Assembly: GCA_040902655.1 (NCBI GenBank)
Contig: JBBDWV010000049.1
Coordinates: 20,926-84,925 of the forward strand
Direction of reading: 5' to 3'
DNA: 64,000 nucleotides
Origin: Mycobacteriales bacterium
GTDB taxonomy: Bacteria > Actinomycetota > Actinomycetes > Mycobacteriales > SCTD01
Each line of letters begins with the position of its first letter. The first letter of the stretch is position 1. The notes beneath the pieces were generated by a model. The model did no database searches, was not told the DNA's origin, and was given only the letters and a program-made list of their open reading frames with translations. Positions 9,438 through 52,028 of the stretch are shown piece after piece. The translations under genes were made by a program, and so were the position numbers.

Positions 9438-9932
9438 ATGAGCACCCAGTCCGCCCCGTCGACACCCTGGCTCACCCAGGAGGCCTTCGACCGGCTGTCT
9501 GCCGAGCTCGAGGAGGCCAAGGGTCCGCGCCGCGCCGACATCGTGGCGAAGATCGAGGCGGCCCGCGAGGAGGGCGACCTCAAGGAGAACGGCGGATACC
9601 ACGCCGCCAAGGACGAGCAGGGCAAGCTCGAGGCCCGCATCCGTCAGCTGACCCAGCTGCTGCGCGAGGCCAAGGTCGGCGAGGCACCGACCAGCGCCGG
9701 CGTGGCCGGCCCCGGCATGGTGGTCGAGGTGAAGTACGCCGGTGACGACGAGACCGAGCGTTTCCTGATCGGCTCGCGCGAGGACAAGGTCTCGATGCCG
9801 GTCTACTCCGCGCAGTCCCCGCTCGGCCTGGCCCTGACCGGTGCCAAGGTGGGCGACTCCGTCAGCTACACCCTGCCGAACGGCGGCTCGATGACCGTCG
9901 AGCTGCTGTCCGCGGAGCCGTACACCGGCTGA
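9438..9932 (+). CDS. greA: transcription elongation factor GreA
   Basis: [40 protein letters not shown] plus a C-terminal FKBP-like domain. ATG 9438. Confidence 0.95.
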
Positions 9933-9962
9933 CCGCACCCTCGGCCGGCCGTGCCCGCGGCT

Positions 9963-11126
9963 TCAGCAGGGGAAGGCCAGCACGGAGGCGGTGAAGCCGT
10001 GCAGGTGGTTGCGCCCGCCGACCGGCCCCAGCTCACCTCCGGCGAAGAAGCCGGCGATGCCCGGGGCGGCGAGTTCCTCCCGCACCAGCGCGGGGTCATG
10101 GTCGGCGCCGCCGTGGGAGGCCCCGAACAGGTGTGCCCCCCTGCCGTTGCAGGAGAACAGCAGCACGCCGCCGGCCGGCGTGTCGCGGCTCACCCGCCGA
10201 TAGCCGGCCAGCAGCGCGCGCAGGTCGGCGTCGGCGGCATCCGCGTCCCGCACCTGCAGCCGGACGGTCCGTCCCACCTCCACCAGGTCGCCGACGACGA
10301 CGCCGCCGGTCTCCCGCTCGACGCCCAGGATCGCGCGGACGAGGAAGTCGTGCTCCTCGGCGTACTCATCCATCGCGATGCCGATCTGCAGGCCCGAGCG
10401 GGCCAGCGCCTGGTCGGCCGGTGACAGCTCGGCGAGCAGCTGCTCCAGACGCTGCAGCGCCGGCACCCCCGCCAGCTCGCGCAGCACGTTGCCTGCGGCT
10501 GCGGTGACGGTCATCGGCGGGCCGACGGGGCGGCAGCCCTGGCTCACGATCGTGCGCAGGCCGGCGCCCTGCACCAGCACGCCGACTGCGCCGCGATCGA
10601 CCACCCGGCCGTCGACGAGCAGCCGGGTCGAGCCGGCACCGCGCGCACCGCCCGCAAGGCCACCGACGACCGGGAGCCCGGGCAGCGCGACGTTCACCTG
10701 GTCCAGGAAGCCCTCGGCCGGGAAGCTGTACGGGTCCGCGAGCAGCACGGCCACGTCGTCGCCGTCCGGCTCCGGCAGACCGATCACCGCGGCGCCCTCC
10801 TCGGAGGTCAGGACCTCGAGGTGGAACGCCCGCAGCCGCACGTCCGGCAGCACCGCGGCGAAGACGCTCACCGCCGCCCGTCCCTCGACGCCGTGTGCAC
10901 CGCCGATGACCCCTCCTGCGCTGCAGCCGATCGTCGCCCCGGCGGCCGAGACCTGCGCCGCGTGCCCGAACGCCGCCGCCACGTCCTCGGGATCGGCACC
11001 GGCGACGAACACGCAGAGCAGGTCCGGCGCCCGGCCACCGAGAGGAACCAGCGCCCGCGCCGTCGCCTCCTCGGCCGCATGCAGCAGGTCGCCGCCGATT
11101 GCCAGTCCGTCCCCGAAGCACGCCAT
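9963..11126 (-). CDS. FIST-domain signal-sensing protein
   Basis: FIST_N/FIST_C layout. The C-terminal GFFAGGELGPVGGRNHLHGFTASV is the characteristic FIST_C ending. Confidence 0.75.
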   Translation of the reverse strand: MACFGDGLAIGGDLLHAAEEATARALVPLGGRAPDLLCVFVAGADPEDVAAAFGHAAQVSAAGATIGCSAGGVIGGAHGVEGRAAVSVFAAVLPDVRLRAFHLEVLTSEEGAAVIGLPEPDGDDVAVLLADPYSFPAEGFLDQVNVALPGLPVVGGLAGGARGAGSTRLLVDGRVVDRGAVGVLVQGAGLRTIVSQGCRPVGPPMTVTAAAGNVLRELAGVPALQRLEQLLAELSPADQALARSGLQIGIAMDEYAEEHDFLVRAILGVERETGGVVVGDLVEVGRTVRLQVRDADAADADLRALLAGYRRVSRDTPAGGVLLFSCNGRGAHLFGASHGGADHDPALVREELAAPGIAGFFAGGELGPVGGRNHLHGFTASVLAFPC

Positions 11127-14605: not shown

Positions 14606-14720
14606 AACTCGTGGCCTCGTACGGGCAGGAGCAGGAATCGGGCCGCGGGTGGCGAAATCAGCAGCCGGAACACGCTCTACGCTGGCCAGCCCGCTACCGC
14701 CACGACCTTGGAGTCACGTG

Positions 14721-15203
14721 ATGAAAAAGCCCGGCTTCTCCTTCGGCAGGTTCGGCGGCAAGGCCGGCCTGCTGTTGGCCGGGCTCGGCCTGCTGGCGAT
14801 CGGCCTCGGCTTCAACGGCGCGGCCAGCCAGCTGTCGATCCTGGCCCAGGTGCCGTACGTCGTCTCCGGCGGCCTGCTGGGCATCGCGTTGGTCGTGCTC
14901 GGCGCCGCCATGATCGTCGTCCAGGGCGCACGCGAGGACCGGGCCCTGCTCGAGGCGAAACTGGACCTGCTCACCGACGCCGTCCTCGACAGCCGGCGCA
15001 GCGCTGCCCGGCCGGGTGTCCCCACCGACCTGTCCGGCCTGGTCGTGGCGGGCTCGGCGAGCTACCACGTGCCCGGCTGTCGCCTGGTGGACGGCCGTGA
15101 GGAGATGACCTACCTCACCCCCGACGAGGCCCGCGGCCGCGACCTGAAGGCCTGCCGCGTCTGCCAGCCCGACCTCGCGTCGACCGACGTGCGGGTCCGG
15201 TAG
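14721..15203 (+). CDS. membrane protein with C-terminal Ada-like metal-binding motif
   Basis: ATG 14721 is preceded by GGAG. Two TM helices, then SYHVPGCRLVDG..TPDEARGRDLKACRVCQPD (H-x3-C...C-x2-C-x-P), which resembles the Ada Zn-binding domain. Confidence 0.65.
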   Translation: MKKPGFSFGRFGGKAGLLLAGLGLLAIGLGFNGAASQLSILAQVPYVVSGGLLGIALVVLGAAMIVVQGAREDRALLEAKLDLLTDAVLDSRRSAARPGVPTDLSGLVVAGSASYHVPGCRLVDGREEMTYLTPDEARGRDLKACRVCQPDLASTDVRVR

Positions 15204-15260: not shown

Positions 15261-15854
15261 CTACACCGGGGCGACGCCGATGAGTCCGTTGCGGGTGACC
15301 AGTCCGGCAAGCGCCTGCTCGTCGAGTCCCTCGGTGCCGGCCGGCCGGCGTGGCAGCACCATGTGCCGTGTCTCCGCGGTGGCGTCCCAGACCGTCACCT
15401 CGACGTCGACCGGCAGGTCGTACCCGAACTCCCGCAGGACGCCACGCGGGTCGCGCACGACGCGTGAGCGGTAGCCCTCGCTCTTGTACCAGGTGGGCGA
15501 CGGACCGAGCAGGGCGATCGGGTAGCAGGAGCACAGCGTGCAGACGATGACGTTGTGCCGCGTCCCGGTGTTCTCGACGACCTCGAGCCGCTGCTCCTGC
15601 AGGCCGCCGCCCATCGAGAGCCCGAGCTCTGGGAGAGCGGCGTTCGCATCGACGAGCAGCCGCTCGCGGAACGCGCCGTCGACCCACGCGCGCGCGACGA
15701 CGCGCGCCCCGCTCGCCGGCGACGCCCTGCTCAGGAACGCCGTCAGCGCCCGGTCGAGCTCGACGGGATCGACCAGGCCTCGGCTCTCGAGGAGGGCCTC
15801 GACGTGTCGCACCCGGGCCGCAAGGGCCGCGTCGCCGGAGGAGTGCGCGCTCAT
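15261..15854 (-). CDS. nitrile hydratase alpha subunit homolog (cobalt-type; also matches thiocyanate hydrolase gamma)
   Basis: Metal-site motif VCTLCSCYP (Thr variant, cobalt class), then WYKSEGYRSRVVRDPRGVLREFG and ETRHMVLPRRPAGTEG. ATGA overlap with the upstream gene. Confidence 0.9.
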   Translation of the reverse strand: MSAHSSGDAALAARVRHVEALLESRGLVDPVELDRALTAFLSRASPASGARVVARAWVDGAFRERLLVDANAALPELGLSMGGGLQEQRLEVVENTGTRHNVIVCTLCSCYPIALLGPSPTWYKSEGYRSRVVRDPRGVLREFGYDLPVDVEVTVWDATAETRHMVLPRRPAGTEGLDEQALAGLVTRNGLIGVAPV

Positions 15855-16132
15855 CTGACGTCCTCCTCGAGGGCGGTGAGGTAGTCCTCCCAGAGGTCGA
15901 GCACGACGTCGTGCTCCCCCTCGCCGAACAGCTCGGCGGCGCGAAAGCGGACGGCGTAGGTGGTGCTCGGCGCGGGCTCCAGGCCACGCGCCCGGTCGTC
16001 GGCGAGCGGGTGCCGACCGTGCGATCCGAGCACGGTGCCGACCGCTCCACGGGCGTACCGCGGGAGGCGGGTGTGGTGTGCGGGGTCGGCATGTCCCGTG
16101 CGCACCCGGGTGCCGGCGAGAAGATCAGGCAC
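15851..16132 (-). CDS. nitrile hydratase beta subunit, C-terminal-half homolog (separate 93-aa polypeptide)
   Basis: GTRVRTGHADPAHHTRLPRYARGAVGTV...YAVRFRAAELFGEGEHDVVLDLWEDYL is the SH3-like C-terminal half of NHase beta. The GTG start overlaps the preceding gene by 8 nt. Confidence 0.8.
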   Translation of the reverse strand: MPDLLAGTRVRTGHADPAHHTRLPRYARGAVGTVLGSHGRHPLADDRARGLEPAPSTTYAVRFRAAELFGEGEHDVVLDLWEDYLTALEEDVR

Positions 16133-16406
16133 TGACCTCCTCCTGTGTCAGCACGCCCTTCTCGACGAGCAGCGTCTGGATCGCCAGGAACCACTTCTCG
16201 TAGTACGACGACGCGAGGTACCGGTCCGGCGAAATCCGCTCGACCGCATCGCGGAACTCGTCGAGGTTGTAGATCCCGGTGCCGACGAGCGCACGGTTCA
16301 TCGCGAACACGTGGGCCTCCCAGTCCGCGTAGAACGGCGGCTCGTCGAGCTCGGGCTGGGGGAGCCCGAAGCCCTCGAGTCCTCCGACGTCGTTGATACG
16401 TGCCAT
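16125..16406 (-). CDS. nitrile hydratase beta subunit, N-terminal-half homolog (separate 93-aa polypeptide)
   Basis: MARINDVGGLEGFG...PPFYADWEAHVFAMNRAL matches the NHase beta N-terminus (MDGIHDLGG...WE.R). GGGAGG precedes ATG 16406. Confidence 0.8.
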   Translation of the reverse strand: MARINDVGGLEGFGLPQPELDEPPFYADWEAHVFAMNRALVGTGIYNLDEFRDAVERISPDRYLASSYYEKWFLAIQTLLVEKGVLTQEEVSA

Positions 16407-16449
16407 CTGCGCGCCTCCCTCGGGGCATCCTGCCATGCGCGGAGGCGGG

Positions 16450-17168
<719 letters not shown>

Positions 17169-17172
<4 letters not shown>

Positions 17173-18155
17173 GTCTGGTCCTCCTGCCGTGCGGCGGTGG
17201 TCCGGCGGCGGGCGGACGCCCGCTTCTTCGGGCGCAGCCGTTCAGTGCCACCAGCAGGCTCGGCAGGAGGCGGCGCCGGCGGCTGCGCGAACTCCTGCGT
17301 GGGGGCGTCGTCGTGCGCGTGCACCGCCTGATCGGTGAGCCGGTCGAGCTCGGCGTCGTCGGCGCTCTCCTGCGTCTGTTCGAGCGCCTCGGGCGCCTCG
17401 CCACCGAGGTAGGCGGCGACGACCTCCGGGTGGGTCTGGATGACCGACGGCTTGCCCTCGGCCAGCAGCCGGCCGAAGTTCAGCACGTAGACGTGGTCGC
17501 AGACGCGCAGCACGAGCGGCACGTGGTGTTCGATGACGAGCATCGTCAGCTCGAACTCCCGGCGCAGCGTCAGCAGCCGATCGCCCAGCTCGTCTGACTC
17601 CTCGGGTCCCATGCCCGACGTCGGTTCGTCCAGCAGCAGGATGTCCGGGTCGGTCGCGAGCGCACAGCCCAGCTCGAGCAGCTTGAGCGTGCCGTAGGAC
17701 TGCCCACCGACCTGCATGTCGCGGATGTCGGCCAGCCCCAGCAGGTCCAGGATCGCCTCGGCCTTGGCCTGCAGTTGACGCTCGGTGCGTAGCGACCGGC
17801 CGCTACCGAGCAGGCCACTGGCCACGTCGTAGTCGACCTTGGCGTGCTGGGCGGTCTTGAGGTTCTCGAGCGCGGTGGCGCTCTTGACCATGCCAACGTT
17901 CTGGAACGTCCGGCCGAAGCCCATGGCGGCCTTGACGTGCGGCGGCGCGTTCGTGACGTCGCTACCGCGGTAGCTGACTCTGCCGGTGTTCGGCGTGTAG
18001 AAGCCGGTGATGCAGTTGAAGGCCGTCGTCTTGCCGGCGCCGTTCGGGCCGATCAGGCCGACGATCTCGTACTCGTTGACCTCGAGGTTGACGTCCTGGA
18101 GCGCCTGCAGGCCGCCGAAGCGGATCGACAGGTCGCGGACCTCAAGCACGGACAT
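17169..18155 (-). CDS. ABC transporter ATPase (LivG-type) with about 70-aa low-complexity C-terminal tail
   Basis: GPNGAGKTT, FQNVGMV, LLLDEPTSG, and the branched-chain C-terminal block PEVVAAYLG. An acidic/Pro-rich tail ending in a basic stretch (KKRASARRRTTAARQ) follows. Confidence 0.9.
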
Positions 18156-19275
18156 GGGAGCCCTCCGCCGTTCCGGGTCCGGATTCCTTGCCGGCGTGCA
18201 GCATGGTCTGCAACGAGAAGGGTTTGCCGGAGAGCCAGTCCAGCGCCCACTTGGTCTGCTGGGCCAGGCCGCCGGGGAACAGCACCAGGGTGATCAGCAG
18301 CAGGAACGCCCCGATGAACTGCGGCGCGAACTGCTGCAGGTTGCTGGTCCGGAAGATGAACTCCTCCACCGCGTGGACCGGAGTCTCCTCCAGGATGTAG
18401 CCGATCGCGGCGAAGAAGGACGAGCCCATGATGACGCCGATCCGGTTGCCCAGCCCGCCGACGACGGTCATCAGGACGAAGGTCAGCGCGAGGAAGAAAC
18501 CGAAGCCCGACGCGCTGACGATCTCGATGCGGAAGGCGAACAACGCGCCGGCGACGCCGGCGAGGGAGCCGGACAGCACGAAGGCGATGAGCTTGAACAG
18601 AGTGACATTGACGCCGAAGGCCTCCGCCACCCGCTCGTTCTCCTTCAGCGCGAGCAGCGCCCGGCCGGTCTTGCTCTTCATCAGCCGCCAGTCGAGGTAG
18701 ACCGCGGCGGCGAGGAACACCAGGCAGAACAGGTAGAAGTTGCCGTTGTCGAACAGGAACTCCGGCCGCTCGGCCGGCTGTCCGGCGCCGCCGTTGGTGA
18801 ACCTGGGCACCTCGAAGAGGGAGGCCTCCAGGGTCAGGCCGAAGACCAGGGTGATCAGCGCGAGGTAGAGGCCGGTGATGCGCAGGGCGACGATGCCGAT
18901 GAGGAAGGCGAACAGCCCACCCACCGCCGCCGCGATGACGAAGGTTGCGGCGAACGGCACGCCCTGCACGGTCAGGCTGTAGGCCGCGGCGAAGGCCCCC
19001 ACGCCGAAGAAGCCCTGGTGGCCGAGCGAGAGCTGTCCGGTGTAGCCGATGATGATGTTCAGGCTCAGCCCGACGATCGAGTAGATCGCCGCGTCGGCCG
19101 CGATCGGGGCGTAGACCTCGCTGTCCGGCACGAGCACGAGCAGCCAGTAGGCGAGCAACAGGTAGACGACCGCCCGCGGGACCCAGCGCAGCGGCCCGAA
19201 GTCCCTGCCGGCCGCGCCGTGCCGCGGCCTGACGTCCTCCACACCGGTCGGGCGTTGCGTGATCGTGGTCATCAT
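18142..19275 (-). CDS. ABC transporter permease (LivM-type)
   Basis: ORF trimmed to ATG 19275 (MMTTITQ), with an ATGA overlap onto the LivH-type stop. GYTGQLSLGHQGFFGVGAF motif. Confidence 0.9.
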   Translation of the reverse strand: MMTTITQRPTGVEDVRPRHGAAGRDFGPLRWVPRAVVYLLLAYWLLVLVPDSEVYAPIAADAAIYSIVGLSLNIIIGYTGQLSLGHQGFFGVGAFAAAYSLTVQGVPFAATFVIAAAVGGLFAFLIGIVALRITGLYLALITLVFGLTLEASLFEVPRFTNGGAGQPAERPEFLFDNGNFYLFCLVFLAAAVYLDWRLMKSKTGRALLALKENERVAEAFGVNVTLFKLIAFVLSGSLAGVAGALFAFRIEIVSASGFGFFLALTFVLMTVVGGLGNRIGVIMGSSFFAAIGYILEETPVHAVEEFIFRTSNLQQFAPQFIGAFLLLITLVLFPGGLAQQTKWALDWLSGKPFSLQTMLHAGKESGPGTAEGSHVRA

Positions 19276-20201
19276 GCCTGCTTGCCGAGCAGGCCGGCCG
19301 GCCTGACGAGGAGCACGGCCAGCAGCGTCACGAACAGCACCACACTGCCGGAGCCCGGCAGGATGTCCTTGCTGATGTTGGCCTGGGCCAGCGCCTCGAC
19401 CACGCCGATGACGACACCACCCAGGAACGCGCCCGGCAGGCTGGTGATCCCGCCGAACACCGCGGCCGTGAACGCCGGGATCAGCGCCAGACCGGTCAGC
19501 GCGCCGGGGGCGATGACGCCGTTGCTGCCCGAGAGCAGGATCCCGGCGACCCCACCCAGCAGACCGGCAATGCCCCACGTCAGCGCGGAGATGCGGCGGA
19601 CGCTGATGCCCACCAGCTGGGTGGCGGTCGGCTCCTGTGACACCGCGATGATGGCCGTGCCCGTCCGGGTGCGGCTGAAGAACAGCGCCGAGGCGGCCGC
19701 CAGCACCGTCAGGACGACGACGATGACGCCCTGCTGTCGGGTGATCCGCACCGCGCCGGTGTTGACGAGATCGCCGCCGACCAGTGGCGGGAAGCTGCCC
19801 GGCTCGGCCCCGTTGAGGAAGCCCTGGATCGCGATCAGCAGCAACGCCACGCCCGCGGTGGCCACGACCAGCGTGACCTTCGGGGCGTTGAACAGCGGCC
19901 GGACCACGAGGAACTCGGTGAGCAGTCCGATGCCGACGCCGACGAGCAGCCCGAACACCACGGCGGCCCCGAGTGGCATCTGCGGCAGGAAGCCGGTGCC
20001 GTTGACGGCGAACAGGGTGGCGAAGGCGGCGCTGGTGCCGAACTCCGCCTGGGCGAAGTTGAAGATCCGGTTGCTCTTGTAGAGCAGCACCAGACCCAGC
20101 CCCAGCAGCCCGTAGACCGCTCCCTGGATGGCCCCGGAGATGGCCGGGCCGACGACGGACAGCGCCTGTGGCTCGAGCGCCATCAGCACAGGGACACGCA
20201 C
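19272..20201 (-). CDS. ABC transporter permease (LivH-type)
   Basis: GAVYGLLGLGLVLLYKSNRIFNFAQAEFG is the typical LivH N-terminal block. An alternative ATG start lies at 20183. Confidence 0.9.
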   Translation of the reverse strand: MRVPVLMALEPQALSVVGPAISGAIQGAVYGLLGLGLVLLYKSNRIFNFAQAEFGTSAAFATLFAVNGTGFLPQMPLGAAVVFGLLVGVGIGLLTEFLVVRPLFNAPKVTLVVATAGVALLLIAIQGFLNGAEPGSFPPLVGGDLVNTGAVRITRQQGVIVVVLTVLAAASALFFSRTRTGTAIIAVSQEPTATQLVGISVRRISALTWGIAGLLGGVAGILLSGSNGVIAPGALTGLALIPAFTAAVFGGITSLPGAFLGGVVIGVVEALAQANISKDILPGSGSVVLFVTLLAVLLVRPAGLLGKQA

Positions 20202-20220
20202 CCCTCAGCAGTCGGGTGTG

Positions 20221-21681
20221 TCACTTGGCGTACGTCTTGAGCGTCTTGGTACGGCCCTGGTCGTTGCAGTTGCTCTGCAGCCCGAAGGCCGCGGTGCCAC
20301 CGAAGACCTGCCCGCGGTAGATCGCCGGGCTGAGGATGCCGCCCTTGACACCGCCCTGCCGGAGCGTGGCGATGAACTTCTCCCGGGTCAGCTGGCCGGG
20401 CACCTGGTTGAAGGCCTGCTCCAGCTGCTGCATCGCGCCGTAGATGCCGTACTCGATGTCGTCCTGGAAGCTCACGCCGGGTGCCCGCTGCGCCGCGGTG
20501 TCGAGGCCCGGCGAGGGGTGCAGGAAGAAGCCCTTGTACTGGTTGGCCGTGTTGGTACAGGCCAGCCGGCCGACCGACTGGATGCCGAAGGACGGGCCGA
20601 CACCGACGTAGACCGGCTGGTAGGTGGGGGTGTAGCCGATGCTCGTCACGCAGCTGATGAAGTACGACGGCTGGCCGAGGAAGTAGATGCGGGTGTAGGT
20701 GTTGCGCAGCTGGCCGGCCAGGGTCGAGCAGTTGGTCCCGGTCTTGGCCGTCAGGTAGACGTCGTTGCCCGAGGTGAACTTGCCGCTCTTGCCGTTGACG
20801 CCGGCCTTCTGCAGGGCGGACACGACGGACTCGCGGGCGTCGGCGAAGTTCGGCCCCTCGGTGATGACCACGGCCCAGCTGCCGTCCAGGAACTTGTTGT
20901 CACGGGCGAACTGCGGGATGAGTGCGCCCTGCTGCTTGTAGGTCAGCGAGGTGGCGAAGTAGTTCGGCAGCTTGCCCAGGCCGGACTCGGTGACGCCCGA
21001 GGACAGGTACGGCACGTTGCCGCGGCGCAGCACCTGACTCTGGGCGCAGGCCTGGATCTGGTCGGTGCCGGCGCCACCGACGATGAGGAACGAGTCACGG
21101 GCGGCGGCGTTGCAGGCGCGCAGCGCGTCGGGGGCGTTGTACTTGTCGTCCACCGCCTCGGCGATGACGGTGTAGCCGTTCTTCAGCTTGCGGCCGTTCC
21201 AGTACTTCGGGGTGCCGCTGCGGAAGGATTCCTGCGGCACGCCGGCGCCGGTGAGCGGCCCGTGCAGGGTGATCTTCACCGTCTTCCTGCCGGCGTCGAT
21301 TCCCGTCGTGGTGCCGGACTCGGCGGGCGCGGGGCCCGCGGCGGGGCGGTCCGTGCCGCCGGCAGCGGGGGCGTCGGCAGCGGGGGCGTCGGCAGCGGGG
21401 GCGTCGGTGCCGCCGGCAGCGGGCGCGTCCGGCCCCGCGGCGGCGGGGCCGTCGGTCGGTCCGTCAAGGGCCCCGGGGTCGCTGCCCGGGACCAGTGGGT
21501 CACCCGTCACCGGGTCCACTCCGCCGGCGCCGATCGGGTCGAGCCCGACCGCGCCAGCGCCGCCGGCGACGGCTGGGTTCTGGGCGAGCTGCTCCTTGAC
21601 CTCGGGCTTGAGGCCGCAGGCGGAGACGAAGGCGCTGGACAGCAGCACGAGGGCGAGCGTGCGGCGGTGCCGGACGTTCAT
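20221..21681 (-). CDS. lipoprotein substrate-binding protein of the Leu/Ile/Val/amide-binding (type I PBP) family with long Pro/Ala/Asp linker
   Basis: Lipobox LSSAFVSAC. About 110 aa of PAGD-rich linker, then a type I periplasmic-binding-fold-like domain. It is the first gene of the transporter cluster. Confidence 0.8.
   Translation of the reverse strand: MNVRHRRTLALVLLSSAFVSACGLKPEVKEQLAQNPAVAGGAGAVGLDPIGAGGVDPVTGDPLVPGSDPGALDGPTDGPAAAGPDAPAAGGTDAPAADAPAADAPAAGGTDRPAAGPAPAESGTTTGIDAGRKTVKITLHGPLTGAGVPQESFRSGTPKYWNGRKLKNGYTVIAEAVDDKYNAPDALRACNAAARDSFLIVGGAGTDQIQACAQSQVLRRGNVPYLSSGVTESGLGKLPNYFATSLTYKQQGALIPQFARDNKFLDGSWAVVITEGPNFADARESVVSALQKAGVNGKSGKFTSGNDVYLTAKTGTNCSTLAGQLRNTYTRIYFLGQPSYFISCVTSIGYTPTYQPVYVGVGPSFGIQSVGRLACTNTANQYKGFFLHPSPGLDTAAQRAPGVSFQDDIEYGIYGAMQQLEQAFNQVPGQLTREKFIATLRQGGVKGGILSPAIYRGQVFGGTAAFGLQSNCNDQGRTKTLKTYAK
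21361..21405. repeat. perfect 15-bp x3 tandem repeat (ggcagcgggggcgtc) inside the SBP linker
   Basis: Read directly from the sequence. It encodes DAPAA x3 on the minus strand. Degenerate copies flank it. Confidence 0.9.
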
Positions 21682-21764
21682 GGGGTGGCTCCCGGGGTCA
21701 CTGGGGGTGGAGCGGCCGGAGCCGCACTGAACCGTGCTGTGCCGTGCTGGGCTGGCAGGCGGAG

Positions 21765-23084: not shown

Positions 23085-23540
23085 ATGAGGTACTCGGGGG
23101 CTTACGCCGTCGTCCTGGCCCTGCACCTGCTGACCGTCGTGTTCGTGGTCGGCCCGTCGGCGGTCGCGGGGGTCGTTTCCGTCCGGCACGCCCGCGCCGG
23201 CCGGGCCGACGCGCTGCGCGACGCGAGCCGCACCACCCGGATCTACGCCCTGGCGACGCTGCTCACCGTGCTGCTCGGTACGGCGCTGATCGGGCTGGGT
23301 GACGTCGGCGCACAGTGGGGGCTGGGCCAGCCGTGGGTGTCGGCGTCGTACGCCCTGTGGGTCGTGGCGCTCGCGCTGACCCTGGGGCTGGTCGTGCCCG
23401 CGCAGGAAAAGGCGGCGGGAGCCATCGAGGCCGGCGGCGACGGGAGTGCCTTCGCAGGGCGCATCGCGGCCGGCGCCGGTCTCGCGATGCTCGCCTGGTC
23501 GGTCATCGTCGTGCTGATGGTGACCAAGCCCGGCGCCTAG
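23085..23540 (+). CDS. DUF2269-like integral membrane protein
   Basis: Four hydrophobic helices in 151 aa. The call is based on composition and layout, from memory of the family. Confidence 0.55.
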   Translation: MRYSGAYAVVLALHLLTVVFVVGPSAVAGVVSVRHARAGRADALRDASRTTRIYALATLLTVLLGTALIGLGDVGAQWGLGQPWVSASYALWVVALALTLGLVVPAQEKAAGAIEAGGDGSAFAGRIAAGAGLAMLAWSVIVVLMVTKPGA

Positions 23541-23777: not shown

Positions 23778-24779
23778 CTAGCCGGGGGGGTCGGCCAGGG
23801 TCCAGCCGCGGACGGGATCACCGGCGACCTGCGGAGTCTGCCGGCCGTACGGGCGCTGTCCGAGCGTGATGGCCTGGGCGTAGTAGGTCGAGTAGCGCAG
23901 CGCCTCACCGATGGTGGTCCGGCCGTCCCTGTCGGCGTCGGCCTGACTCTGGCGCAGGCCGAGGTCGAAGACCAGGCCGGTCCACACCGACATCCCCCAC
24001 GGGGGGTACTCGTAGGACTTCTCGGTCGCCTTCGAGCTGCCGCTGAACAGCACCCGGTCGCTCGGCAGCCCGTCGAGGAAGCTGGCCGCCTCGCAGCCGG
24101 CGATGTCGACCCACAGGCGGCCCTGCACCTTGCTCAGCGCGGCGGTGACCTGCGTGTCGCGGACGAAGTCGCGGTCTACCGGCCACAGCGACTCGCGCTG
24201 CCCACCGTGCTGCTTCACGTGGCCGCTGTAGTGGAAGAGCGTGAAGGTGCCGGGCCGGCCCTTCGCGGCGAGCCAGGCCATGCCCCCGCGGATCGCCCGG
24301 CCGGTCACCTGGCCGTCGGTGATCACCCTGATGTTCTCCGACCGCCAGCCGCTGGCCTGCAGCATCGTGGCGATGTACTGCACGTCCTTGCGGCTGCCGA
24401 TCGTGTCGGCGGTCGGCCGGCGGTAGTCCTGCACCCCGACCAGGAAGGCGTAGCGGTCAGCGGGCGCGGCGGTGCGAGCCGGCCGCGGGTCGTGCTGCGG
24501 ACCCGGCGGCGGGCCCAGCACGGACTCCACGTCCAGGGCCGGCCGGGCGGCGGCGCGGACCGGCGCCTTCCGGGGCGGCTCGGGTGGCTCGGGCGGGGTC
24601 GACGGGCCGAGCGCCAGCTGCTCGCGCACCGGCTCCCTGAATGCGGGCGTGGCCGACTCGACGATCTGTTCGCGCGGCGGCTCGATCGCCTGCGTCGCAC
24701 CGAGCCCGACCAACAGCACCAGGCCCAGACTCCAGGCGGTCGCCTCCACGAACCAGCGGGGCGAGCGGCGGCGGGGCAC
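23778..24779 (-). CDS. exported/anchored caspase-fold cysteine peptidase (C14/C13-like)
   Basis: N-terminal anchor WSLGLVLLVGLGATQA and a Pro-rich linker. His block TFTLFHYSGH and Cys block LWVDIAGCEAAS fit the caspase/metacaspase dyad pattern. The C-terminal loop DADRDGRTTIGE is EF-hand-like. Confidence 0.65.
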   Translation of the reverse strand: MPRRRSPRWFVEATAWSLGLVLLVGLGATQAIEPPREQIVESATPAFREPVREQLALGPSTPPEPPEPPRKAPVRAAARPALDVESVLGPPPGPQHDPRPARTAAPADRYAFLVGVQDYRRPTADTIGSRKDVQYIATMLQASGWRSENIRVITDGQVTGRAIRGGMAWLAAKGRPGTFTLFHYSGHVKQHGGQRESLWPVDRDFVRDTQVTAALSKVQGRLWVDIAGCEAASFLDGLPSDRVLFSGSSKATEKSYEYPPWGMSVWTGLVFDLGLRQSQADADRDGRTTIGEALRYSTYYAQAITLGQRPYGRQTPQVAGDPVRGWTLADPPG

Positions 24780-48819: not shown

Positions 48820-49641
48820 TCACGACGAGTCGAGCACCGCCCGCAGGAACGACTGCGTGCGCTCGTTCTCCGGCTCGGTGAAGATCTTGTCCGGCGGCCC
48901 CTCCTCGATGATCTGGCCGCTGTCGAACATCAGCACCCGATTCGAGACGTCGCGCGCGAAGCCCATCTCGTGGGTGACGATGAGCATGGTGATGTTCGTG
49001 GTCTGGGCCACGTCGCGCAGCACGTTGAGCACGTCCGCGACCAGCTCCGGGTCCAGCGCCGAGGTCACCTCGTCGAGCAGCAGGATGTCGGGGTCCATCG
49101 CCAGCGCCCGGGCGATCGCCACCCGCTGCTGCTGCCCACCGGACAACTGGGTCGGGTGGGCGTCGGCCTTGTCCGCCAGGCCGACCATCTCCAGCAGCTC
49201 CCGCGCCCGCTGCTCGGCCTTGTCCCGGTCGACGTCCAGCACGTGCACCGGAGCCTCGGTGATGTTGCGCAGCACCGACAGGTTCGGGAAGAGGTTGAAC
49301 TGCTGGAAGACCATCCCGATCTTCTTCCGCACCTGGCGCAGGTGCTTCTCGTTCGCCGGGACGAGCTTGCCCTTGCGCTGCATGTGCCACAGCGGCTTTC
49401 CCTCGACCCAGATGACACCGCCGTCGAGCTTCTCGAGGGTCATCAGCAGGCGCAGGATGGTCGTCTTCCCGGAGCCGCTGGGACCGATGAGGGTGACCCG
49501 TTCACCGGGCGCGACGCTGAAGTCGAGGTCCCGGAGCACGACGAGGTCGCCGAAGCGCTTGACGACCTTGTCGAAGCGGATGATCGGCTCGCCGGCCGGC
49601 GTGGGACCGGCGACCTGATCGGGGGCGGTGTCACTGGCCAA
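48820..49641 (-). CDS. polar amino acid ABC transporter ATPase (ectoine/hydroxyectoine EhuA-like)
   Basis: GPSGSGKTT, LSGGQQQRVAIARAL, ILLLDEVTSALD. Confidence 0.9.
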   Translation of the reverse strand: MASDTAPDQVAGPTPAGEPIIRFDKVVKRFGDLVVLRDLDFSVAPGERVTLIGPSGSGKTTILRLLMTLEKLDGGVIWVEGKPLWHMQRKGKLVPANEKHLRQVRKKIGMVFQQFNLFPNLSVLRNITEAPVHVLDVDRDKAEQRARELLEMVGLADKADAHPTQLSGGQQQRVAIARALAMDPDILLLDEVTSALDPELVADVLNVLRDVAQTTNITMLIVTHEMGFARDVSNRVLMFDSGQIIEEGPPDKIFTEPENERTQSFLRAVLDSS

Positions 49642-50284
49642 GGCGGTTCTCCATCTTGCGCAGGGCGAGGGCGGTCGGATAACTCGCGAGCAGGAAGATC
49701 AGCCCGGCGATCGTGAACGGCTCGATGTAGCGGAAGTTCCGCGAGCCGAGTGAGGACGCCGTCTGGACCAGCTCCGGCACCGTGATCAGGGCGAGGAACG
49801 GCGTCTCCTTGAACATCGACACGGCGTAGTTGCCCAGGGCCGGCAGCACGCGGCGCAGTGCCTGTGGCAGCACGATGTTCTGCCAGGTGTAACGCGCCGG
49901 GATCGACAGCGCGGTCGTGGCCTCCCACTGCCCCTTGGGCACCCCGTCGATGCCGGCGCGATAGACCTCGGCGTAGTAGCAGGCGTAGTGCACCCCGAGG
50001 GCGAGCACACCGGTCACGAGCGGTGACATCGTGATACCGAAGCCGGGCAGCACGTAGAACAGGAAGAACAGCTGCACCAGCAGCGGGGTGCTCCGGACGA
50101 ACTCGATGAAGCCGGTGGTGAGCGGCGCGAGCACGGGGACGCGCACGTAACGGACGATCGCGAAGACCAGCCCGAGAACGGCGGCGAGCACCGATCCGAG
50201 CAGGGTCGCCACCAGTGAGTAGCGTACGAAGTGCTCGAGCAGCACCGGCAGGATGTCGGCGGCGTACTCCCAGTTCCAGATCAC
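49631..50284 (-). CDS. amino acid ABC transporter permease (HisM/EhuD-like)
   Basis: 217 aa with about 5 TM helices. Conserved loop region YAEVYRAGIDGVPKGQWEATTALSIP. Confidence 0.85.
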   Translation of the reverse strand: MIWNWEYAADILPVLLEHFVRYSLVATLLGSVLAAVLGLVFAIVRYVRVPVLAPLTTGFIEFVRSTPLLVQLFFLFYVLPGFGITMSPLVTGVLALGVHYACYYAEVYRAGIDGVPKGQWEATTALSIPARYTWQNIVLPQALRRVLPALGNYAVSMFKETPFLALITVPELVQTASSLGSRNFRYIEPFTIAGLIFLLASYPTALALRKMENRLGQ

Positions 50285-51000
50285 CGGACCTCACCCTGCA
50301 CTCCGGCCGTCCAGGACAGCAGGCCGCGACGCGGTGGCGCCGGCTGCCCGATCCGGGCCTTGGCCCGGCGCTCCAGCGCACTCATCAGCAGCGTCGTCAG
50401 GTATGCCAGCACGAAGTAGATGCCCAGCGCCAGGGTGAAGATGAAGAACGTGTTGCCCTCGGAGTCGCGGTAGGACTTGGTGACCGCCATCACGTCGACC
50501 AGCGTGATCGTGAAGACCAGGGGGGTGCTCTTGAGCAGCTGGATCAGCAGGTTCCCGAACGGCGGGATCATCCCGACGACGGCCTGCGGGAGGATCACCA
50601 GCCGCATCCGCTGGTACGGCGTCATGTTCAGAGCGATCGTCGCCTCCCGCTGCGGCTTCGGCACGGCGTTCACCGCTCCACGTACGACCTCGGAGCCGTA
50701 CGCACCGAAATTCATCGCGAAGGCGAGCACCGCGATCGCGAAGGCGTCCAGCCGGTAGCCGAGCTGGGGCAGCACGAAGTACAGCCAGTACAGCTGTACG
50801 AACAGCGACGTCCCGCGGAAGAACTCCACCACGATGCGGGACAGCGTCCGGGGCAGCCGCCCGGGCGCCCCGGCCATCAGCCCGAGGACGAAGGCGACGA
50901 CCAGGGCACACGCGGCACTGACAGCGGTGACGAGGACCGTGAGCCAGATGCCCTGGAGCAGCGCCTCGACCCAGGGGCCGAAGTCGGCGAGTGCGTCCAC
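50281..51000 (-). CDS. amino acid ABC transporter permease (HisQ/EhuC-like)
   Basis: 239 aa. Loop GSEVVRGAVNAVPKPQREATIALNMTPYQRM. GTGA overlap with the next permease. Confidence 0.85.
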   Translation of the reverse strand: MDALADFGPWVEALLQGIWLTVLVTAVSAACALVVAFVLGLMAGAPGRLPRTLSRIVVEFFRGTSLFVQLYWLYFVLPQLGYRLDAFAIAVLAFAMNFGAYGSEVVRGAVNAVPKPQREATIALNMTPYQRMRLVILPQAVVGMIPPFGNLLIQLLKSTPLVFTITLVDVMAVTKSYRDSEGNTFFIFTLALGIYFVLAYLTTLLMSALERRAKARIGQPAPPRRGLLSWTAGVQGEVR

Positions 51001-51010
51001 GACCCCCAGC

Positions 51011-51907
51011 TCAGCTCTGGCAGAGCTGCTCGGTCGTCAGGTCGTCGGGCGGGATGGTCTCCGGGCCGAAGCCGTACGGCTCGATCAGCTCGAGCAGCCG
51101 GCCGCTCTCCCGCAGCTTGTTCAGCTCGGCGTTGAAGGCCTCGCGCAGCTCGTCGTCGCCCTTGCGGAAGACCGCGCCGCCGGCGCCGATCTGCTCCTCG
51201 CCGTCGATCACCGGAACGAACGCCTCGGTGATCTCCACGCCGCTGTCCGGGCTGTCCTGGAGCAGGCGGTTCAGCGAGATGCTGGTGATCGCCAGCGCGT
51301 CGATCCGGCCCGCCTTGAGGGCAGCCAGACCGTCCCGCTGGCTGGAGACCTCCACGATCCGGTTCTGCGGAGTACCGGTCTTCTGCGCGTAGATCCCCTC
51401 GACCGCGCCGGGCAGGACACCCACCTTGCTGTCACTGCTCGCCACCGACTCGAAGTCGGAGATCTTCTTCGGGTTGCCCGCCGGGACGAGGAAGGCGTTG
51501 GGGGCGATGTAGACCGGCTCGGAGAAGTCGGCCTCGGCGCAGCGCTCGGGCAGGATGAACATGCCTGCGGCCACGACATCGAAGCGTCCGGCCTTCAGCC
51601 CCGGGATGAGCTGCCCGAAGTCCACCTGGGTGCCGTTGAGCTCGTTGATGCCGAGTTCTTCATAGATCGCCTTGTGCACCGCGGGCGCCTGCCCGAGCAG
51701 CTCGTTGCCCTCCTTGTAGGCGTAGGGCTTCTCGCCGGCGAAGCCGACGTTGATCGAGCCGCGTTCCTTGACGGTGTCGAGCAGCGAGCCCTCCCCGCTG
51801 CTGTCGACACTGCTGCACCCGGCGACCAGGCTCAGTGCGGCGGCCACCCCCAGCGCCACCGCCGGCCTACACCGGAGAACGTTCGATCGGGTCCTGTGCG
51901 TCGCCAC
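51011..51907 (-). CDS. lipoprotein amino-acid-type substrate-binding protein (EhuB-like)
   Basis: GTG 51907 has GAAGGA upstream. Lipobox LVAGCS. FGQLIPGLKAGRFDVVAAGMFILPERC resembles the EhuB block as I recall it. Confidence 0.75.
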   Translation of the reverse strand: MATHRTRSNVLRCRPAVALGVAAALSLVAGCSSVDSSGEGSLLDTVKERGSINVGFAGEKPYAYKEGNELLGQAPAVHKAIYEELGINELNGTQVDFGQLIPGLKAGRFDVVAAGMFILPERCAEADFSEPVYIAPNAFLVPAGNPKKISDFESVASSDSKVGVLPGAVEGIYAQKTGTPQNRIVEVSSQRDGLAALKAGRIDALAITSISLNRLLQDSPDSGVEITEAFVPVIDGEEQIGAGGAVFRKGDDELREAFNAELNKLRESGRLLELIEPYGFGPETIPPDDLTTEQLCQS

Positions 51908-52028
51908 GGTGAGGTCCTTCCGTCGTGGACACCAGCCGGTGCCGCGTCGAGACTGTCGTCCGGGTTCGAGGGGGCACGGTACCAAGAATGCGCATCCTGC
52001 CCGGCGGTGACATCACCTGTCGGATGTG

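Follow-up and report, generated by a model that had tools for sequence, protein, structure and literature searches.

Among nitrile hydratases (NHases), the toyocamycin enzyme ToyJKL of Streptomyces rimosus has been described as an exception for having three subunits (PMC12648386). These subunits have masses of 21.2, 10, and 11.4 kDa and form an (alpha-beta-gamma)2 hexamer (PMC8574189), and their genes reside in the toyA-M cluster for a deazapurine nucleoside (PMC12648386). Classical cobalt-type (Co-type) NHases, such as those of Pseudomonas putida NRRL-18668, Pseudonocardia thermophila, and Bacillus (3qxe, 1ire, and 2dpp), have two subunits. Thiocyanate hydrolase (SCNase) of Thiobacillus thioparus (2dd4) again has three, which correspond to a split NHase beta subunit plus an alpha-like gamma subunit. 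On the transport side, the LivJ/K-HMGF and UrtABCDE systems combine two BPD_transp_2 permeases, LivG- and LivF-type ATPases, and a binding protein with a type I fold. Here we describe a locus in which genes of both kinds stand together on contig JBBDWV010000049.1, in a window of 64,000 nucleotides (nt) that represents the whole stretch of DNA analyzed. Three NHase genes (betaN, betaC, and alpha) directly follow genes for a lipoprotein solute-binding protein (SBP), two permeases, and two ATPases (Table 1). A preliminary description interpreted these eight genes as a dedicated module that imports a nitrile-bearing solute and hydrates it. We find instead that the locus is a lineage-specific juxtaposition of two known kinds of system. 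Quite probably, a conserved transporter operon acquired at its downstream end, in this lineage only, a self-contained and unrelated NHase cassette, and the arrangement did not evolve as an import-and-hydrate system.

The two halves of the locus were each compared with related loci in other genomes. For the enzyme, a survey of one genome per species yielded 74 loci, about 65 of which carry a betaN-betaC-alpha cassette whose alpha subunits are 66-84% identical. An SBP, LivH, or LivM gene lies beside the split-beta cassette in 0 of these ~65 loci, and the only ATP-binding cassette (ABC) proteins encoded nearby are distant, generic ATPases located kilobases away. Upstream of the nearest cassettes (alpha 88% identical) lies a divergently transcribed gene, not livF. 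For the transporter, six loci were available whose SBP orthologues are 58-75% identical and which share the gene order of the window. Four of them (L080, L081, L165, and L166; 58-72% SBP identity) extend past livF, and none of the four has an NHase there. Their common order is peptidase C14, hypothetical protein, SBP, LivH, LivM, LivG, LivF, a convergent gene for a protein of 161-164 amino acids (aa), VWA, and AAA, except that the L081 contig starts at the SBP gene and hence lacks the peptidase. The transporter proteins themselves are 70-92% identical between the window and these relatives. For example, LivH identity reaches 92% with the orthologue in L078/L079 and 86% with that in L080, and LivF is 90% identical to its orthologues in L080 and L081. 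An additional 80 metagenomic LivF loci likewise include no NHase; most of these represent generic LivF paralogues (42-50% identical), one is a closer orthologue (66%), and the immediate relatives are not among them. As far as these data reach, the juxtaposition is unique to this genome, an outcome that the preliminary description had itself named in advance as speaking against its proposal. Likewise, our literature search found no paper that describes an NHase linked to a Liv-type transporter.

The limits of the inserted unit can be read from DNA homology. Similarity to L080 and L081 breaks off close to the livF stop codon (16461) and sets in again where the convergent gene has its stop codon (15203/15204). 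Similarity to the nearest cassettes (L082 and L083) covers exactly 16438-15261, with 84% nucleotide identity. This segment, which runs from ~30 nt of leader (with the ribosome-binding site) across the three genes to the end of the alpha gene, stop codon included, is absent from the syntenic loci L080, L081, L165, and L166. At the corresponding site behind livF, three relatives have long perfect hairpins with stems of 13-24 bp (L080 14125-14209, z -6.9; L165 13311-13369, z -6.4; L166 13386-13463, z -4.6), and the structure in L081 is weaker (z -1.6). Located between livF and the convergent gene, the hairpin is a putative bidirectional terminator. The window has lost it: the 43-nt gap between livF and betaN, which carries a GGGAGG Shine-Dalgarno sequence, has no structure beyond chance (z +0.5), and the 57-nt spacer after the alpha gene is weakly structured (z -1.3).

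Close packing behind a gene on the same strand is also found for this cassette elsewhere. The cassette begins less than 100 nt behind a co-directional gene in 18 of the 56 informative loci, and these upstream genes are of unrelated kinds. In four Umezawaea genomes (L028, L040, L043, and L062), for instance, it directly follows a gene for a GyrA/ParC-like topoisomerase of 1455-2038 aa with a Hint (intein) domain, which ends 13-25 nt upstream of the cassette (position 9440). Tight adjacency on one strand therefore does not imply a shared function. When all coding-like open reading frames (ORFs) within 4 kb of the cassette were clustered for 76 loci, the neighbors differed from locus to locus. 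An attempt to assign a substrate through guilt by association was abandoned, since the largest recurring family occurs in 8 of the 76 loci and gives no substrate hint.

These comparisons bear directly on the module proposed in the preliminary description, in which the Liv-type importer brings in a nitrile-bearing solute, with a cyano-amino acid, an aminonitrile, or thiocyanate as candidates, for cytoplasmic hydration by the NHase. The proposal draws on the tight packing of the genes on one strand, on the 43-nt gap that has no hairpin, and on the type I periplasmic binding protein (PBP) class of the SBP, which includes amide and urea binders; furthermore, an insertion may be retained because co-expression is useful. 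However, the pairing is absent from all ~65 cassettes, all four syntenic transporter loci, and all 80 other LivF loci, the transporter is strongly conserved in relatives that have no enzyme at this site, and the same cassette lies directly behind clearly unrelated genes elsewhere. A dedicated module is therefore unsupported, and we consider it unlikely. Its thiocyanate version is disfavored further, because the alpha subunit scores 167.1 bits against a cut-off of 291.45 for the SCNase gamma family (thiocyan_alph) and PDB E-values favor NHase by ~25 orders of magnitude. About equally doubtful is an alternative in which either the transporter operon captured a promoterless cassette for a nitrile-related solute or the cassette family has one conserved, unrecognized substrate. 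If captured, the cassette may act on an imported solute that is, or yields, a nitrile, and the locus would be a young, naturally assembled import-plus-hydration unit. The family version may build on the activator-free, split-beta organization, on alpha subunits that are 70-84% identical across several actinobacterial orders and occur also in Chloroflexota and Dormibacteraeota, and on the lack of conserved neighbors.

Several points weigh against the insertion that we favor. Neither convincing direct or inverted repeats nor mobile-element genes flank the insertion to show how it arose, and the GC content of third codon positions (GC3) differs only slightly between the cassette (0.85-0.92) and its neighbors (0.91-0.96). 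A recent insertion can still be adaptive, and the absence of conservation thus does not prove that functional coupling is absent. In addition, the nearest relatives by SBP, L078/L079 (75%) and the P0122 contig (87%), end before the 3' end of livF, and a small clade could have the insertion in common. The early ends of these contigs also leave some room for an ancestral linkage, in which the NHase genes formed part of the operon from the start and disappeared from the sampled relatives. Such a history is very improbable: the four relatives that can be inspected lack the NHase, three of them have a well-formed terminator hairpin at the exact site, and the nearest DNA relatives of the cassette sit in other contexts and share DNA that ends ~30 nt upstream of betaN. 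Several independent, precise deletions would be needed in place of one insertion, which points to a gain and not a loss. Hardly probable at all is an assembly artefact. The source is a metagenome-assembled genome and the cassette GC3 is slightly lower than that of its neighbors, as might be expected if a foreign cassette had been joined into the contig. However, the same conserved synteny occurs on both flanks within one contig, two precise joins 1.2 kb apart within an intergenic spacer of ~60-210 nt would be required, and the junctions are devoid of repeats able to mislead an assembler.

The favored insertion would have brought together two units. One comprises a hypothetical secreted protein, the lipoprotein SBP, and the LivH/M/G/F-type block, and sits in a core housekeeping region (metG ... 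mfd ... eno ... cbs-metB ... greA). The other is a three-gene Co-type NHase cassette with its beta subunit split into two ~10-kDa polypeptides and with no adjoining activator or amidase gene. This cassette, which is compact and probably promoterless, would have entered the short spacer that separates livF from the convergent gene, together with ~30 nt of leader, replacing the hairpin terminator seen there in relatives. Because the cassette lies where relatives have a convergent terminator and has little upstream sequence of its own, its genes would most likely be expressed via read-through from the transporter operon, and co-transcription of livF with the NHase genes is plausible. The enzyme would most likely assemble as (alpha-betaN-betaC)2 and hydrate a cytoplasmic nitrile to the amide. 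The locus is thus a clean natural example of a cassette that replaces a terminator and would borrow transcription from an upstream operon. It also calls for caution in annotation: tight, terminator-less packing suggested a novel module, whereas comparative genomics reveals a one-off insertion, and an annotation of the locus as a system for nitrile uptake would be misleading.

The enzyme encoded by the cassette looks like a bona fide Co-type NHase, and its assignment to the NHase family in the preliminary description stands. The three products match the Pfam families NHase_beta_N (106.6 bits), NHase_beta_C (77.6 bits), and NHase_alpha (252.3 bits; cut-off 27.2), and the alpha subunit falls just below the NCBIfam equivalog TIGR01323 (244.9 bits versus a cut-off of 249.85). 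Its metal site, VCTLCSCYP (within VIVCTLCSCYP), aligns column for column with that of Co-type alpha subunits in PDB. E-values against PDB range from 1e-59 to 3.5e-62 for Co-type alpha subunits, compared with 1e-42 to 1e-46 for iron-type enzymes and 1e-35 for SCNase gamma. BetaN, in which the motifs EFR and SYYEKW are retained, corresponds to residues 3-92 of 3qxe_B, a Co-type beta subunit, and betaC, which retains HTRLPRY, corresponds to approximately residues 133-225 of PDB beta subunits; all three motifs align with their equivalents in 3qxe_B and 2dpp_B. In NHases, the second-shell residues of the beta subunit that face the metal site are two Arg residues and a Tyr/Trp cluster, and the two halves retain these Arg and Tyr motifs. 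On the basis of motif retention and the close Co-type matches, the enzyme looks functional.

A single beta polypeptide of ~205-235 aa is absent from the locus. In its place are two overlapping 93-aa ORFs in different frames, and a middle segment of ~40 residues is missing from both halves. The calculated masses are 10.5 kDa (10.54) for betaN, 10.3 kDa (10.25) for betaC, and 21.2 kDa (21.17) for the 197-aa alpha subunit. This split is not a frameshift artefact: Rhodococcus antarcticus and several metagenomic contigs have the same pair of genes annotated, again overlapping by 8 nt. The spacer from the alpha stop codon to the convergent gene contains no accessory or activator gene (P14K/NhlE type).

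With the classical two-subunit Co-type NHases, the enzyme thus shares an identical VCTLCSCYP motif and a close alpha match, but it differs in having a beta subunit made of two polypeptides that lack the middle segment, in the gene order betaN-betaC-alpha, and in the absence of both an accessory/activator gene and an amidase. It resembles ToyJKL in having three subunits, with masses of 21.2, 10.3, and 10.5 kDa here versus 21.2, 10, and 11.4 kDa, a likeness in masses and layout. To our knowledge, there is no separate activator gene for ToyJKL. Nelp et al. (Biochemistry, 2014) reportedly found that the alpha subunit of the toyocamycin NHase alone is modified and active. By analogy, the missing activator and amidase of the cassette family would fit the pattern of this three-subunit enzyme, and maturation may likewise be activator-independent. 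The genomic context is different, since the present cassette resides in a housekeeping region and the window has no deazapurine biosynthesis genes. A toyocamycin-type context was also considered for a Streptomyces cassette (L061) and rejected, because its neighbors are glyoxalase-family and FAD-oxidase genes and include no deazapurine genes. SCNase is more distant despite its own three-subunit organization: matches are much weaker (E 1e-35 for gamma and 6e-4 for the betaC equivalent), and its PDB chains, with 126 aa for alpha and 243 aa for gamma, exceed those encoded here in length. The SCNase beta subunit has ~157 aa. The NHase described here is a new member of a three-subunit, activator-free Co-type group.

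This group is widespread. Its hosts include Mycobacteriales, Frankiales, Geodermatophilaceae, Streptosporangiaceae, Pseudonocardiales, Nocardioidaceae, Streptomyces, Thermoleophilia, Chloroflexota, and Dormibacteraeota. The preliminary description had singled out the lack of an activator and an amidase as a peculiarity of the locus; it is instead the rule for the whole cassette family. No split-beta locus in the survey has a second betaN-like match, whereas two classical proteobacterial loci, L063 (10001-11437) and L074 (523-2014), encode an alpha subunit, a full-length beta subunit, and an extra betaN-like accessory protein. Close copies of the cassette do not appear to be plasmid-borne, given that the best listed plasmid matches have at most ~55% identity and one unlisted record falls in the 60-80% band. 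The locus retains modest interest through this widespread, strongly conserved three-subunit NHase cassette that has no activator. NHases are useful as biocatalysts, and an activator-free form may be easier to express.

The transporter is a divergent ABC importer of the HAAT family (hydrophobic amino acids, urea, and amides), as judged from two BPD_transp_2 permeases, LivG- and LivF-type ATPases, and an SBP assigned to the type I PBP class by its fold and its homologues. Pfam assigns BPD_transp_2 to both LivH (114 bits) and LivM (145 bits), ABC_tran plus BCA_ABC_TP_C to LivG, and ABC_tran to LivF. These features are shared with the LivJ/K-HMGF and UrtABCDE systems. Every component scores far below the Liv and Urt equivalog cut-offs of NCBIfam (for example, 99.6 versus 379 for LivH and 95.8 versus 250 for UrtB), and the LivH-type permease is under all equivalog cut-offs in that database. 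LivG has a charged, low-complexity C-terminal extension of ~75 aa (residues ~255-328; window 17169-17400, minus strand), and its orthologues, with 343-362 aa, are of comparable length.

The SBP diverges from these systems in further ways. It has no Pfam or NCBIfam match of its own, so its earlier assignment as a lipoprotein of the type I PBP class holds through homologues with PF13458 and through the predicted fold, not through a direct family match. The lipobox (Cys22-Gly23) is invariant in 44 homologues and is followed by a Pro/Ala/Gly-rich tether of ~100 residues (residues 30-125). An AlphaFold (AF2) model has pLDDT values above 90 over most of the mature domain, and Foldseek matches it to LivJ/K-type SBPs at 12-18% identity. 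Based on this model, the SBP is predicted to have, behind the tether, a divergent periplasmic binding fold of type I (LivJ/K-like). The folded domain has four cysteines that are invariant in the SBP family (Cys190, Cys212, Cys375, and Cys472), which probably form two disulfides, and no family member is close to any solved SBP. Fold comparison was tried as a route to the ligand and gave no candidate, because the ligands of the best matches, again at 12-18% identity, are diverse and include leucine, fatty acids, hydroxybenzoate, and urea.

Inspection of ORFs and junctions confirmed the eight minus-strand genes of the preliminary description, every junction included (Table 1). The DNA of the window has a high GC content (about 67-77%) and originates from a Mycobacteriales bacterium whose genome was assembled from a metagenome, and the SBP is 100% identical to protein WD794_13490. 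The run of eight genes includes no amidase, activator, or regulator, and among the scanned predicted proteins of the entire window (a few candidate ORFs were left unscanned) there is no match to amidase, aldoxime dehydratase, cobalt transporter, or NHase activator families. The gene that follows the alpha gene is convergent, as described earlier, and so are its orthologues in relatives. Around the locus lies a core housekeeping region with metG, tatD, rpfB-like, ksgA, ispE, glmU, prs, rplY, mfd, eno, ppx, cbs, metB-like, and greA genes.

Table 1. Coordinates of genes and other features at the NHase-transporter locus (window positions unless a relative is named)
Feature	Position	Strand	Remarks
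SBP	20221-21681	-	19-nt gap to LivH
LivH-type permease	19272-20201	-	ATGA overlap with LivM
LivM-type permease	18142-19275	-	ATG at 19275 overlaps LivH stop; 14-nt overlap with LivG
LivG-type ATPase	17169-18155	-	ATGA overlap with LivF
LivF-type ATPase, final gene of conserved transporter operon	16450-17172	-	43-nt gap to betaN
NHase betaN	16125-16406	-	ATG at 16406; 8-nt overlap with betaC
NHase betaC	15851-16132	-	ATGA overlap with alpha
NHase alpha	15261-15854	-	next gene convergent
Inserted unit: ~30 nt leader plus three NHase genes	15261-16438	-	DNA homology to L082/L083
Convergent membrane protein gene, far side of insertion site	14649-15203	+	orthologues in relatives
Conserved hypothetical protein, 367 aa	21765-22868	-	N-terminal signal peptide, C-terminal membrane anchor; no Pfam match
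Hypothetical-protein gene in relatives	L078 8843-9955; L080 7547-8659; L165 6863-7936; L166 6812-7954		position upstream of SBP
Tandem CCGYRCTG, three copies, 10-bp period	21722-21749	.	41-68 nt upstream of SBP start codon

Although the gene content of the proposed eight-gene operon is correct, its boundary is not secure. The 5' end of the transcription unit is uncertain because the hypothetical-protein gene lies on the same strand, 83 nt upstream of the SBP start, and is conserved there in relatives. Orthologues that are 53-57% identical precede the SBP gene in L078, L079, and L080, and genes of similar size occupy this position in L165 and L166. The gene is therefore kept in five of the six loci, which represent every relative whose contig reaches that far. 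Across the transporter family, the encoded protein has 357-380 aa and its gene lies 45-83 nt upstream of the SBP gene. It probably belongs to the conserved transporter block, and the protein may be a sixth component of the operon.

The direct repeat noted earlier upstream of the SBP gene is present, but it has three copies of CCGYRCTG. About 0.34 matches of this kind are expected by chance in the window, and the regions upstream of the SBP orthologues in L078-L080 do not conserve the repeat, which may have arisen by slippage. Instead of it, the SBP orthologue in L078 is preceded by another short direct repeat, two copies of CACCTCCCG (9950-9990), which also occurs at the same relative position in L079. 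Short tandem repeats hence recur upstream of the SBP gene while their sequence is not conserved. No credible riboswitch or other RNA element was found near the operon, the single match having an E-value of 0.39, under the gathering threshold. A consensus scan for promoters and terminators, which is uninformative for a high-GC actinobacterium, returned no sigma-70-like sites and a lone terminator-like site inside livM, no more than chance predicts.

Two further genes lie between the cbs/metB-like pair and the transporter block: a caspase-like Peptidase_C14 gene (23778-24779, minus strand) and a gene for a DUF2269 membrane protein (23085-23540, plus strand). The former is kept at that place in L078, L080, L165, and L166, and the latter in L078-L080 only. 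The window also encodes another ABC importer, which is unrelated to the first and belongs to the polar amino acid type (48820-52012, minus strand); it consists of an SBP_bac_3 protein, two BPD_transp_1 permeases, and an ATPase.

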